A stretch of 64,000 bases of DNA from assembly GCA_918244965.1 (NCBI GenBank), contig CAKJYC010000004.1, positions 1,185 through 65,184 on the forward strand, read 5' to 3'. The stretch is from Clostridiales bacterium. Lineage in GTDB: Bacteria; Bacillota; Clostridia; Christensenellales; CAG-138. Shown here in pieces: positions 43,610 to 47,183 of this stretch. The translations under genes and the position numbers were made by a program. Within the stretch, counting starts at the first letter, position 1; the number at the start of each line of letters is the position of its first letter. Below the pieces are notes generated by a model. It did no database searches and was not told the DNA's origin. It saw only the letters and a list, made by a program, of their open reading frames with translations.

Positions 43610-44822
43610 ACAGGCGGAAGCGCGTGCGCAAAAAGCGTATCAGAAAGCCGAAAGGACAGCAATCATCTGTCAGGAGCGAGTGCTTGCCGCATTTCAGAAG
43701 CATCGAATTTCGGCGCGTCATTTTGCACCGACGGAAGGATACGGGTATGACGATATCGGCAGAGACGCTCTGGATGAGTTGTTTGCCGATGCACTTCAGG
43801 CGGAATCCGCGCTTGTGCGTCCGCAGATCGCGAACGGTACGCACGCAATCTTCCTTGCGCTGTCCGGCGTCACGGAGCCGGGGGATACCATCCTTTCGCT
43901 GACCGGCGCACCGTATGATACGCTGGAAAGCGCTGTAGGATTGAACGGCGATCTGCCGAATGCCCTGACACGGTTCGGGATCCGGTTTCATTCGGTTCCG
44001 TTTGCAGACGACGAGATCGATCTTGAAGAGGCAGGGGAGCTGCTGAAAAACGATCCTTCCGTAAAAATGGTCTATCTGCAACGTTCGAGAGGCTATGCGT
44101 GGCGCAAAGCGCTGACGATTCGCGAGATCCGTGAAACGATTGCGTTTGTTCGCAAGATCAGACCTGATGTCATCGTATTCATCGACAACTGTTACGGCGA
44201 GTTTACGGAGACAGAGGAACCGACGGCGGTCGGCGCGGACTTGATGGCGGGAAGTCTCATCAAGAATTGCGGCGGCGGCATTGCGCCTACCGGCGGATAC
44301 ATTACCGGCAGGAAGGACCTGATCGAAGCGGTTGCATTTCGACAAACCGTACCGGGATGCGGCAAAGAGATTGGTTCTTATGCCGCTTCCTATCGGCCGT
44401 TTTATCAGGGGCTGTTCATGGCGCCGCACACCGTTTTGCAGTGCATGAAGAGTGCGATCCTGTTTGCCGCATTGTTTGAAACGCTCCAATATAATACGCT
44501 CCCGTCCGTCAACGACGAAAGGAGCGATATCATACAATCGGTACAGTTTCGTACAAAAGAAGAGATGATCGCGTTCACGCAGGCGGTACAGGCGGCTGCA
44601 CCGATCGACAGCTTCGTTGTGCCGGAACCGTGGGATATGCCGGGCTACACAGATCAGGTCATCATGGCTGCTGGGGCGTTTGTGCAGGGCGCAACGACAG
44701 AGCTTTCTGCGGACGGCCCGATTCGAGAGCCGTATACGGCCTATCTGCAGGGGGCGCTGACCTATGAACATGCCGTACTGGCTGCAAGGTCCGTGCTGAA
44801 GGCGTTAATAACTCCGCATTAA
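43587..44822 (+). CDS. YnbB / methionine gamma-lyase-like PLP protein (aluminium-resistance family)
   Basis: GYGYDDIGRD, GTHA, PYDTL, QRSRGY, DNCYGEF, AGSLIKN.GGG, AGAFVQG...ELSADGP. Confidence 0.9.
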   Translation: MDIQTTIEQAEARAQKAYQKAERTAIICQERVLAAFQKHRISARHFAPTEGYGYDDIGRDALDELFADALQAESALVRPQIANGTHAIFLALSGVTEPGDTILSLTGAPYDTLESAVGLNGDLPNALTRFGIRFHSVPFADDEIDLEEAGELLKNDPSVKMVYLQRSRGYAWRKALTIREIRETIAFVRKIRPDVIVFIDNCYGEFTETEEPTAVGADLMAGSLIKNCGGGIAPTGGYITGRKDLIEAVAFRQTVPGCGKEIGSYAASYRPFYQGLFMAPHTVLQCMKSAILFAALFETLQYNTLPSVNDERSDIIQSVQFRTKEEMIAFTQAVQAAAPIDSFVVPEPWDMPGYTDQVIMAAGAFVQGATTELSADGPIREPYTAYLQGALTYEHAVLAARSVLKALITPH

Positions 44823-45416
44823 ACCTGTCACGCAACCTAGGATCTCAACGCGGTCTGACGGATAGAGCATTGGGGAGAAGGCTTCGTTTTCCGGACGGAG
44901 CTCGATCTCCTTTTCTTTTTGGAAAAAGCGTTTGACGGTGACTTCTTCGCCGTCGACGCGCGCTACGACAATATCGCCGTCGTGCGGAACCGCGTCCTGT
45001 TCAACGACAATGATATCACGATCGAAGATCCCGGCATTGTACATACTGTCGCCGTCTACACGGAGCATAAAAACGTCGCTCCTTACGCCGTGTACGAGCA
45101 TAGACGGAATCGGAAATTCGTCCTCACGGTTCTCATGCGCATGGATCGGATACCCGGCGGCAACTTTTCCGAGAAGCGGAACGGACTCTGAACGATCGGC
45201 AATCGGTGCGGCGACAGTATAGGAACGTTTTTTGTTCGGATCGACTGAAAGGATGCCTTCGTCGATCAGCTGCCGAAGATATCGGTGCACAGAGGCAGGG
45301 GATGTCAACCCGACGCCCGTGCAGATTTCACGAACCGTAGGCGGATAACCGTTTTTTCTTTGTTCGTTCAGAATAAACTGAAAGATCTTGTCCTTTGCAT
45401 CGCTGATTTTGCGCAT
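44805..45416 (-). CDS. lexA: SOS repressor LexA
   Basis: GYPPTVREI wHTH, VAAG cleavage site, GDSM catalytic Ser, TVKRF catalytic Lys. Confidence 0.95.
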   Translation of the reverse strand: MRKISDAKDKIFQFILNEQRKNGYPPTVREICTGVGLTSPASVHRYLRQLIDEGILSVDPNKKRSYTVAAPIADRSESVPLLGKVAAGYPIHAHENREDEFPIPSMLVHGVRSDVFMLRVDGDSMYNAGIFDRDIIVVEQDAVPHDGDIVVARVDGEEVTVKRFFQKEKEIELRPENEAFSPMLYPSDRVEILGCVTGLMRSY

Positions 45417-45460
45417 CGTCCCACCTCCGTGATGATTGTATCACAGCTGTCTGAAAAATG

Positions 45461-45474
45461 CAAACAAATGTTCG
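45461..45474 (-). promoter_or_regulatory. SOS (Cheo) box overlapping the lexA -35
   Basis: Minus strand CGAACATTTGTTTG fits Bacillota GAAC-N4-GTTY; overlaps TTGCAT-17-TACAAT promoter. Confidence 0.8.
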
Positions 45475-45482
45475 TAATATTT

Positions 45483-46574
45483 TCAGGATTCGTCGGAAGA
45501 AGGAGAGGGCTCAGGAGAATCTTCGCGAAGCTTAATGTATTTTGCAGCAAGTCGGCTCTTTTCTTCCGTCATAGCGGCATAATGCTTGCGGGTCGTGTTG
45601 ACGTCTTTGTGACCGAGCACATCGGCAACCAGATAGATGTCGCCGCTCTCCTGATAGAGCATCGTACCGTAAGTGCTGCGCAGTTTATGCGGCGTGATCT
45701 TTTTCAACGGCGTTGCGATCTGCGCATACTTTTTCACAAGGTTTTCAACGGCGCGCGGTGTGATGCGTTTTCTCTGCATGGACAGAAAGAACGCGGATTC
45801 ATGTCCGGCAATCGGGATAACAGTTTTTCGTTCTTCAAGATACTCCAAAAGTGCGGCGCGTACTTCCGGACCAAAAGCAAGCGTTTCCTGATTGCCGCCT
45901 TTGCGTGTAACAATGAATTCATTTTTAGAAAAATCCACATCGTTCAGGTCGATTCCGACAAGCTCGGAGATTCGGATTCCGGTGCCGAGAAACAGAGAGA
46001 GGATCGCGACGTCGCGCAGCTTCGTCGCATCGTGGTATCTGCGCTGTGCCTTACTCAAACCGCTGCCTTGCTCGGCAGAATCGAGAAGATCCGCGACCTC
46101 GTTGGCCTCAAGTCGAATAATGGCTTTTTCATGCAGCTTCGGCGTGTCGACCAACGCAGCACAATTTGTTTTGATCAACTCTTTTTTATATAAATATTTA
46201 AATAATGCACGAATAGCCGATAATTTGCGGGATTTCGCACGTTCATTGTTTTCGATCAGTTTTTCGACTTCTGCGGTTTGGTTCTTATACAGTGAGATGT
46301 ATTCCAGATAAAGCTCAATATCAAGGGAGCAGAGGAGTTCCAGATCGGTGCATGACAGATCCCGGATCGCTTTATCGGAAAACCGATCGATTTGTCCGGA
46401 CGTCAAAAATCGAAAGAATGTACGAAGATCGACAGCATATCCGTAACGTGTCAATACCGACGTCGTCGGTTCGATGGCTCGAAAATATAACCGGCAAAAA
46501 CCGGGCAGTTCCGATAAAACGTTTCTGAAGCGCTCGGTCATGATTTGTTTCTTTTCGAGCTGGTAATCACTCAT
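45483..46574 (-). CDS. tyrosine recombinase, XerC/XerS-like (363 aa)
   Basis: Catalytic set TGIRISEL (R), TRKGG (K), HKLR (HxxR), LGH, HY; GGAGG SD before ATG 46574. Confidence 0.9.
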   Translation of the reverse strand: MSDYQLEKKQIMTERFRNVLSELPGFCRLYFRAIEPTTSVLTRYGYAVDLRTFFRFLTSGQIDRFSDKAIRDLSCTDLELLCSLDIELYLEYISLYKNQTAEVEKLIENNERAKSRKLSAIRALFKYLYKKELIKTNCAALVDTPKLHEKAIIRLEANEVADLLDSAEQGSGLSKAQRRYHDATKLRDVAILSLFLGTGIRISELVGIDLNDVDFSKNEFIVTRKGGNQETLAFGPEVRAALLEYLEERKTVIPIAGHESAFFLSMQRKRITPRAVENLVKKYAQIATPLKKITPHKLRSTYGTMLYQESGDIYLVADVLGHKDVNTTRKHYAAMTEEKSRLAAKYIKLREDSPEPSPSSDES

Positions 46575-46620
46575 GCAACAGCCTCCAAATCGGGAAGAAT
46601 AAGATTTTTCGTATATACGA

Positions 46621-46649
46621 ATTATAACAAAACTATTCGTTAAAGACAA
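46621..46649 (-). promoter_or_regulatory. sigma-A promoter of the recombinase gene
   Basis: TTGTCT-17 nt-TATAAT with TG extension on minus strand. Confidence 0.7.
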
Positions 46650-46664
46650 GTTTAACGAATAGTT
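46631..46664. repeat. perfect 14-bp inverted repeat with 6-bp spacer; candidate dif-like recombination site
   Basis: AACTATTCGTTAAA-GACAAG-TTTAACGAATAGTT, 56 nt upstream of the recombinase start; the repeat is certain, the dif role is inferred. Confidence 0.7.
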
Positions 46665-46700: not shown

Positions 46701-47183
46701 TTATTCGGGCTTCAAACCGTCTGCGTCAGTCGATTCTGTGCATTCGTCCTGAAGTGCTTTGATCGCATCGCGTGCCAGTTTGTCACAGCGATTGTTTTCA
46801 GCATTGTCCGAATGTCCTTTAACTTTATGAAAGCATACAACATGCGTTTCACATAGCGCAAGCAATTGTTCCCATAGATCGCGATTGTCGACTTCGCCGC
46901 GGTTTGCCGTTTTCCAACCGTTTTGCTGCCAGCGTTTCAGCCAGCCTTTTTCAAAAGCGCCGCACAGATATGCGCTGTCGGTATACAGATCGACTGAGCA
47001 GCTGCGTTTCAAAAGTCGCAATGCTTCGATCGCAGCAGTCAGCTCCATGCGGTTGTTTGTCGTTTCTGCGGCGTTCCCACTGGCTTCTTTGCGATGCGAA
47101 CCGTACAACAGCACGCAGCCCCAGCCGCCCGGTCCCGGATTGCGCGAACAAGCGCCGTCAGTGTAGATGTCGACCCGATCCAT
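46701..47183 (-). CDS. rnhA: ribonuclease HI
   Basis: YTDGACS.NPGPGG, TTNNRMEL, TDSAY, KVKGH, N.RCD.LA. Confidence 0.95.
   Translation of the reverse strand: MDRVDIYTDGACSRNPGPGGWGCVLLYGSHRKEASGNAAETTNNRMELTAAIEALRLLKRSCSVDLYTDSAYLCGAFEKGWLKRWQQNGWKTANRGEVDNRDLWEQLLALCETHVVCFHKVKGHSDNAENNRCDKLARDAIKALQDECTESTDADGLKPE

Follow-up and report, generated by a model that had tools for sequence, protein, structure and literature searches.

A 64,000-nucleotide (nt) stretch of DNA from a Clostridiales bacterium (assembly GCA_918244965.1, contig CAKJYC010000004.1, positions 1,185 to 65,184; hereafter the window) carries a perfect 34-base-pair (bp) palindrome beside a gene for a XerS-like tyrosine recombinase, and the two very probably constitute the dif site of the chromosome and the single recombinase that acts on it. 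Resolution of chromosome dimers is close to essential in bacteria with circular chromosomes. A first reading of this DNA, made from its letters without database searches (the sequence-only reading), had placed a dimer resolution site here, and every computational check available supports that proposal. The case is built from the anatomy of the site, its conservation, its occurrence once per genome, its position at the terminus, its association with the recombinase and the lack of a XerC/XerD pair. The two elements are:

46631..46664, no strand: candidate dif site (arm 46631-46644, asymmetric 6-bp spacer 46645-46650, arm 46651-46664)
45483..46574, minus strand: gene P0001 of the XerS-like tyrosine recombinase, 363 amino acids (aa) plus stop (from translation, PF00589 and NCBIfam)

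An inverted-repeat scan finds the arms of this 14-6-14 repeat to be 100% complementary, and the plus strand at 46631-46664 reads AACTATTCGTTAAA / GACAAG / TTTAACGAATAGTT. Two inverted arms around a 6-8 bp centre, the layout looked for in a Xer site, are therefore present. Between the ATG of the recombinase gene and the palindrome there are 56 nt, which hold most of the signals predicted for expression of the gene:

46621..46649, minus strand: predicted promoter-like element of the recombinase gene (consensus scan, 10/12 matches)
46583..46587, minus strand: ribosome-binding site GGAGG, 8 nt before the ATG (read from the sequence; kept in the genus alignment)

The promoter-like element consists of a -35 hexamer TTGTCT (46649-46644), a 17-nt gap and a -10 hexamer TATAAT (46626-46621) preceded by TG. 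Its -35 is made up of five spacer bases and the first arm base, and its -10 begins 4 nt past the arm. The sequence-only reading had described a 14-6-14 palindrome 56 nt upstream of a 363-aa recombinase, a TTGTCT-17-TATAAT promoter and an asymmetric spacer holding most of the -35; the layout is exactly as stated there, five of the six -35 bases being spacer. A second perfect palindrome, TTCGTATATACGAA, lies at 46608-46621, between the -10 and the ribosome-binding site; it has the TTCGT/ACGAA core of the arms and is not kept in the genus alignment.

A strong ortholog of the recombinase (E <= 4e-101) is encoded by 35 of 41 related genomes, the six without one being 74-96% complete. When 30 loci were fetched from these relatives, a 14-6-14 repeat of the same sequence (at most 3 arm mismatches) was found upstream of the gene in 28, and a looser half-site score revealed degenerate versions in the other two. 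Together with 80 loci from named public records these make up a set of 110, of which 80 have the site upstream of the gene with at least 16 of the 20 consensus positions matched; the distance is no more than 260 nt in 60 of these. When upstream sequences are aligned within the genus, where mean column identity is 47%, the site and about 10 nt on each side prove nearly invariant. The spacer is exactly 6 bp long in 77 of the 80 consensus hits, lengths of 2 to 12 having been allowed; the three others score lower and come second in loci where a 6-bp site is also present, and the reversed half-site used as a control gave 1 match in this test.

The sequence of the spacer drifts freely among genera (CTTGTC, CACAAG, GCTGTG, GCATTC and others), and its orientation is variable both with respect to the gene and with respect to the replichores. 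The primary sequence of the arms is kept across orders, at about 50% identity of the recombinases, and when one arm changes the other usually changes too, as in AACATTGCG../..CGCAATGTT, AACTCTTCG../..CGAAGAGTT, AACACTTCG../..CGAAGTGTT, AACATTTCG../..CGAAATGTT and AACATTGCGTTAAA/TTTAACGCAATGTT; a distant subfamily (see below) has TTCC/GGAA instead of TTCG/CGAA in both arms. Fixed arms, a fixed spacer length, a free spacer sequence and symmetric co-variation are what the core site of a homodimeric tyrosine recombinase should display.

Matches to the arm at up to 2 mismatches occur in the window only at these two places (shuffle mean 0.29). The draft genome from which the window comes (2.33 Mb in 95 contigs, 57.9% G+C, 95% complete) holds no second exact copy of the site, just three unrelated single arms at 2 mismatches. 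For an order-wide search we used the pattern CTATTCGNNAAA-N6-TTTNNCGAATAG at up to 2 mismatches, with the reversed pattern as control. It matched 197 of 301 order genomes (176 of 261 among the high-quality ones), compared with 8 of 301 for the control, and the table of matches gives one site in 187 of the positive genomes and several in 10. The single-contig genome G033 has one site even at up to 3 mismatches. One site per chromosome, as expected of dif, is hence the rule. Sampling of the whole class yielded the pattern in 41 of 401 genomes (reversed control, 15); 35 of these 41 belong to the 88 genomes that encode the recombinase, and 6 to the roughly 312 that do not, four of the six matches lying within 2.5 kb of a contig end. 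A few genomes have extra, mostly asymmetric copies of the site (G028:C1:1776190; G267:C27:12621 and 14499, 1.9 kb apart; G133, 5 matches; G341, 4 matches), at which dif-exploiting mobile elements may attach or paralogous recombinases may act.

The position of the site along the chromosome also agrees with what is known of Xer/dif systems, which have their sites at the terminus, where the GC skew shifts. Skew in the window is positive up to about 46 kb and negative beyond, and cumulative G-C peaks at 46709, 45 bp from the site. Seven one-contig chromosomes place the gene opposite dnaA, at 48-53% of the chromosome from it. They are listed here with chromosome length, distance of the gene from dnaA, position of the site, position of the local cumulative G-C maximum (distance between the two in brackets) and length examined:

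G028: 2,560,186 bp; gene 53.1% from dnaA; site 2,270,626; maximum 2,269,332 (1.3 kb); 150 kb
G033: 2,422,126 bp; gene 50.8%; site 25,324; maximum 25,634 (about 0.3 kb); 180 kb
G324, circular, labelled Lachnospiraceae-type: 2,877,256 bp; 49.5%; site 2,050,199; maximum 2,051,683 (1.5 kb); 120 kb
G325, labelled Christensenellaceae: 3,703,795 bp; 49.2%; site 1,419,518; maximum 1,418,710 (0.8 kb); 120 kb
G497: 3,132,933 bp; gene 48.3%; site 2,527,957; maximum 2,530,558 (2.6 kb); 20 kb
G558: 2,449,552 bp; 52.1%; degenerate site only; maximum 116,780, at the 3' end of the gene (115,591-116,658); 20 kb
G609, distant subfamily: 4,108,918 bp; 50.5%; site 2,075,294; maximum 2,072,969 (2.3 kb); 20 kb

The multi-contig genome G029 has its site at 993,008 and its cumulative G-C maximum at 993,164 (about 0.12 kb). 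Across the nine genomes the site (the gene in G558) lies 0.05-2.6 kb from the local maximum. Twenty evenly spaced 20-kb samples from each of G028 and G033 reveal a single switch from positive to negative skew, which brackets the locus.

No other Xer system that could serve these chromosomes came to light in the genomes examined. Three PF00589 genes are present in the window's genome; two encode phage-type integrases, and the recombinase is its only Xer-like gene. Both integrase genes lie on contig C6 of this genome (G000), at 40-1314 and 44798-45952, suggesting integrated elements there. Among the 41 relatives, XerD scores over its cut-off in 2. Five genomes contain no XerC over cut-off, with a lone XerD-type gene in each of G025 and G029, and none of five further genomes contains two XerC/D-type genes: G558 is without any, G325 has only a weak second match (153 bits), and G324, G497 and G609 have one each, the XerD cut-off being passed in G324 only. 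A XerC/XerD pair is found in none of these 10 genomes. The lone XerD-type genes are G025:C2:478935, G029:C1:970080, G324:C1:1558285, G497:C1:2508682 and G609:C1:1275606; those of G029 and G497 lie about 20 kb from the site. Searching the window's genome with a degenerate canonical dif core, built from the dif sequences that Kono et al. print for Escherichia coli, Bacillus subtilis and Frankia, returned 0 strict matches.

The sequence-only reading had called for arms and a fixed 6-bp spacer conserved upstream of clostridial orthologs, for a site unique in the genome and for a place near the skew extremum, and all three were found; a canonical XerCD-type dif or a XerC/XerD pair, which it named as refuting, was looked for and not found. 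FtsK with its gamma domain is encoded in the window's genome. In the window and in stretches of G028, G033, G029, G324 and G325 (754 kb from six genomes altogether), all 40 copies of an 8-mer, GCGGGGGA (overlapping CGGGGGAT and GGCGGGGG), point toward the site, and in none of the six does any point away. This may be an FtsK-orienting polar sequence, the G-richness of the leading strand accounting for part of the bias.

The recombinase possesses a TPHKLR motif and the residues R201, K225, H296, R299, H322 and Y332, which are invariant among 17 orthologs, as anticipated from the single sequence, where the R-K-HxxR-H-Y set had been called intact. PF00589 matches it with 105.8 bits. The best NCBIfam model is that of XerS (NF003462), which aligns end to end with 196.9 bits and misses its cut-off of 267. 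XerS is also the best family for 17 of 17 orthologs, none of which passes the cut-off, and none of 47 sampled family representatives reaches it (top score 232). We therefore regard the protein as a relative of XerS and not as a member, since 197 bits fall short of 267; its placement with respect to XerC, XerD, XerS, XerH and XerA is based on hidden Markov model scores alone. The XerS likeness put forward in the sequence-only reading thus stands as far as the best curated model goes and does not extend to membership by the NCBI cut-off. An AlphaFold model (mean predicted local distance difference test score, pLDDT, 82.6) has XerA, Tn1549 Int, XerH and XerD as its top fold matches, with Foldseek E values of 2e-10 against XerA and 6e-5 against Cre. 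A profile search of solved structures gave XerD 104, XerA 92 and XerH (5jjv) 51.8 bits. The two-domain Xer fold and the R-K-H-R-H-Y set that characterize Xer systems are both present.

Members of the family are 349-377 aa long and are numerous. The collection of species-representative genomes contains at least 599 matching stretches, and a word-based search returned at least 7,997 homologs, with generic names where names are present. An exhaustive profile search gave more than 150 clusters (50% identity) scoring over 316 bits, its best 150 all belonging to the same family (316-526 bits). Related records are labelled Christensenellaceae, Oscillospiraceae and Lachnospiraceae. The ortholog profile detects 88 of 400 genomes of the class sample at E <= 1e-70: 59 at 400 bits or more, one at 300, and 28 at 238-265 bits. 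The last group forms a distinct, more distant subfamily (class-sample families f43, f52, f78, f107 and f110), one member of which (L191, G609:C1:2074044-2075243) scores 151 bits on the XerS model. Close orthologs thereby account for about 15% of the class-wide sample and the distant subfamily for a further 7%.

Several observations weigh against the interpretation as a dif site with its recombinase. The order-wide pattern is without a match at up to 2 mismatches in 104 of 301 genomes, 30 of the 110 loci lack the site at 16 of 20 consensus positions, and G558 has nothing but a degenerate, asymmetric version. The skew of G324, G325, G497, G558 and G609 was read over only 20-120 kb around the locus. 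The terminus position of the site is not independent of that of the gene, because the site travels with the gene; just a handful of loci have the two 0.7-2.5 kb apart. A lone XerD-type gene accompanies the XerS-like gene in G025, G029, G324, G497 and G609. The models next in rank for the recombinase, XerC with 162, XerA with 154 and XerD with 148 bits, are each under their curated cut-offs (about 330 bits for the XerC and XerD models TIGR02224 and TIGR02225); its function is assigned by analogy, because its scores fall under the XerS, XerC, XerD and XerA cut-offs. To these may be added the terminator-like features of the palindrome, which are treated below together with the genes that flank the module:

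46701..47183, minus strand: rnhA (RNase HI), upstream neighbour (NF001236, 206 bits against a cut-off of 160)
44805..45416, minus strand: lexA, downstream neighbour, same strand as the recombinase gene (TIGR00498, 187.6 bits, over cut-off)

The surroundings are of a housekeeping kind: besides the recombinase gene, the minus strand carries lexA, rnhA and genes for a SPOR-domain protein and a histidine kinase, while the plus strand carries miaA and a gene resembling methionine-gamma-lyase. The stop codon of rnhA lies 36 nt ahead of the palindrome. Across the 110 loci, the recombinase gene is followed by lexA in 63 and preceded by rnhA in 53. The lexA gene has a promoter-like site of its own and a LexA-box-like sequence, CGAACATTTGTTTG (minus-strand reading, 45461-45474). 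The pairing of xer with lexA in 63 loci, across orders, is an unexplained link between SOS control and a terminus module.

Among the alternatives, we consider it unlikely, though the least so, that the palindrome is only an operator of the recombinase (or xer-lexA) promoter, bound by the recombinase or by a different regulator, and that dimer resolution takes place elsewhere or not at all. Such a role would fit a -35 lying inside the site with an extended -10 4 nt after it, a site-to-gene distance of 260 nt or less in 60 of 110 loci, and the autoregulation proposed for difSL/xerS (PMC1914069, in extract). However, some genomes keep the site at the skew maximum and away from the promoter. The site of G029 is 1.26 kb from xer, with an oppositely oriented 339-aa gene between the two, and is still at the skew maximum; it lies at -669 in locus L022 and 1.4-2.5 kb away in several Lachnospiraceae-labelled loci. 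The G029 gene in question occupies 344-1363 of locus L028, and the site there stands between convergent genes. A pair of arms flanking a spacer fixed at 6 bp but free in sequence is, moreover, the layout of a tyrosine recombinase core, and neither another Xer pair nor a canonical dif turned up in the window's genome.

Still less probable is the view that the palindrome is simply an intrinsic, possibly bidirectional, terminator of rnhA. The terminator scan does flag it (14 pairs followed by TTGTTATAAT), the RNA hairpin has a predicted energy of -16.8 kcal/mol (z -3.2), rnhA is the upstream neighbour in about half of the loci (53/110), and this genome has no other terminator after rnhA. Yet its stem has just 3 G-C pairs among 14, with a poor T-run behind it; the arms keep their primary sequence across orders, a degree of conservation that terminators do not show; and the site also occurs in loci that lack rnhA or have it 1-2 kb off (L026, L129, L134, L106, L147, L169). 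A terminator-only role is unlikely because relatives have another terminator after rnhA: in at least 9 of the 19 loci of the genus (L004-L010, L013, L014, L025) a further hairpin, GC-rich and with a T-run, intervenes between that gene and the palindrome, and G497 likewise has its own 17-bp hairpin terminator after rnhA. Given the stable hairpin and the lack of another terminator after rnhA, a secondary role is possible, and the transcribed palindrome may also end the rnhA transcript in this genome. The G497 hairpin (L189, 9672-9712) lies 280 nt from the new-type site, and its stem contains TTATGTAAAC, the XerD-arm-like core of B. subtilis dif. Its likeness to a palindromic canonical dif is curious, but we read it as a terminator: it forms the stem of a perfect 17-bp hairpin, with TTTT behind it, immediately downstream of rnhA.

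Least credible of the three is a mobile-element origin, in which the gene would encode the integrase of an integrated element and the palindrome would be its attachment site: a site beside a recombinase gene does resemble an integration module and a few genomes have extra degenerate copies, but the housekeeping synteny (miaA ... lexA-xer-rnhA) is conserved across orders, nearly all genomes have one copy, the terminus position is fixed in seven single-contig chromosomes, and the window's genome holds no second copy able to bound an element. Two further candidates were rejected outright, a LexA operator because the site lacks the GAAC-N4-GTTC core that the upstream region of lexA itself contains, and a DNA-inversion switch because there is a single copy per genome.

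On the favoured reading, of a dif site with an adjacent XerS-like recombinase, one monomer would bind each of the identical 14-bp arms, by analogy with XerS/difSL, XerH/difH and Cre/loxP. At the septum the two sites of a chromosome dimer would meet, and a homotetramer would cleave them and swap strands across the 6-bp spacer, thus resolving the dimer; the asymmetry of the spacer would set the direction of the site. FtsK, encoded here with a gamma domain, would probably deliver and perhaps activate the reaction.

Whether occupancy of the site also represses the recombinase's own promoter in the window's lineage appears to us an evenly balanced question, judged from geometry only. Repression by bound recombinase is plausible because spacer and arm contain the -35, and the -10 begins only 4 nt beyond the arm. 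This -35/-10 geometry is seen in the genus alignment as well, and an extended -10 (TGnTAnnnT) directly follows the site in 25 of the 60 loci with a nearby site; in other loci a different promoter-like sequence follows the site, or the start codon is just 18-21 nt away from it. Autoregulation of this kind was speculated upon for difSL/xerS by Le Bourgeois et al. (PMC1914069, in extract).

The locus points to a further single-recombinase system in abundant gut and rumen anaerobes. If this is correct, it would provide a precise terminus marker for their genomes and metagenome bins, account for the missing XerC/XerD pair and predict where dif-exploiting mobile elements integrate; it would also offer a compact one-protein recombination site with symmetric arms for genetic tools in Clostridia, and would bear on the origin of the streptococcal XerS module. 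A bolder proposal, which we put forward tentatively and regard as doubtful in its entirety, is that this is an undescribed, ancient single-recombinase Xer/dif system of Clostridia from which streptococcal XerS/difSL was acquired as a derived offshoot, and that the same 34 bp, given identical arms and a spacer of drifting sequence, form a natural, lox-like minimal site and, in the window's lineage, gate the promoter of their own recombinase. Our literature search, which covered sources outside subscription journals and outside the supplements of Kono et al. 2011 listing predicted dif sites, found no paper on such a clostridial system.

The single-recombinase systems described so far comprise XerS, XerH and XerL among bacteria and, among archaea, XerA (PMC5357621, PMC9765430, both in extract). 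XerS/difSL resembles the module most closely in organization, having a single long recombinase (356 aa) and a site at the GC-skew shift immediately upstream of the gene, a place that the present site, at 56 nt, shares. The inner part of the arm is similar to that of difSL, TTTCCGAAAA (PMC5357621, in extract), and the likeness is closest in the CTATTCCGAAAA of the distant subfamily. The same extracts describe difSL as 31 bp long, with unequal, imperfect arms and an 11-bp central region; the present site, in contrast, measures 34 bp, with identical 14-bp arms and a 6-bp spacer, and its hosts are Clostridia instead of Streptococcaceae. XerH/difH of Helicobacter and Campylobacter likewise combines a single recombinase of about 355-360 aa with a site near its gene, and the difH arms, like those found here, end in ...GAAAA by the central region (AGTTATGAAAA; PMC5357621, in extract). 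Unlike the present arms, however, those of difH are imperfect (11 + 10 bp), the similarity of the proteins is weak (51.8 bits, profile against 5jjv) and the hosts belong to another phylum.

XerL/dif of Legionellales shares the single recombinase, long uninterrupted inverted repeats, the cumulative GC-skew maximum and a low G+C, but over 400 kb separate its dif from xerL, the xerL of Coxiella is plasmid-borne and the arms are of 10 + 12 bp (PMC9765430, in extract). That source presents XerL as a clade of its own, and our likening of it to this family is by description only. The Legionella dif bears on one more statement of the sequence-only reading, namely that fully symmetric arms would be unusual among dif sites: perfect symmetry is indeed unusual, but it is not unique, because precedent exists in these uninterrupted 10/12-bp inverted repeats (PMC9765430, in extract).

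XerC/XerD with the 28-bp dif has in common with the module the fold, the catalytic residues, the 6-bp centre and a unique site at the terminus, and differs from it in having two paralogous recombinases, two different 11-bp arms and genes far from dif; a pair scoring over the TIGR02224 and TIGR02225 cut-offs is not what the window holds, its recombinase reaching 162 and 148 bits. Cre/loxP, a system of phage P1 that needs no FtsK, has 13-bp arms and an 8-bp spacer, and its fold match to the present recombinase is distant. Like the module described here, it combines one recombinase with two identical arms and an asymmetric, direction-setting spacer.

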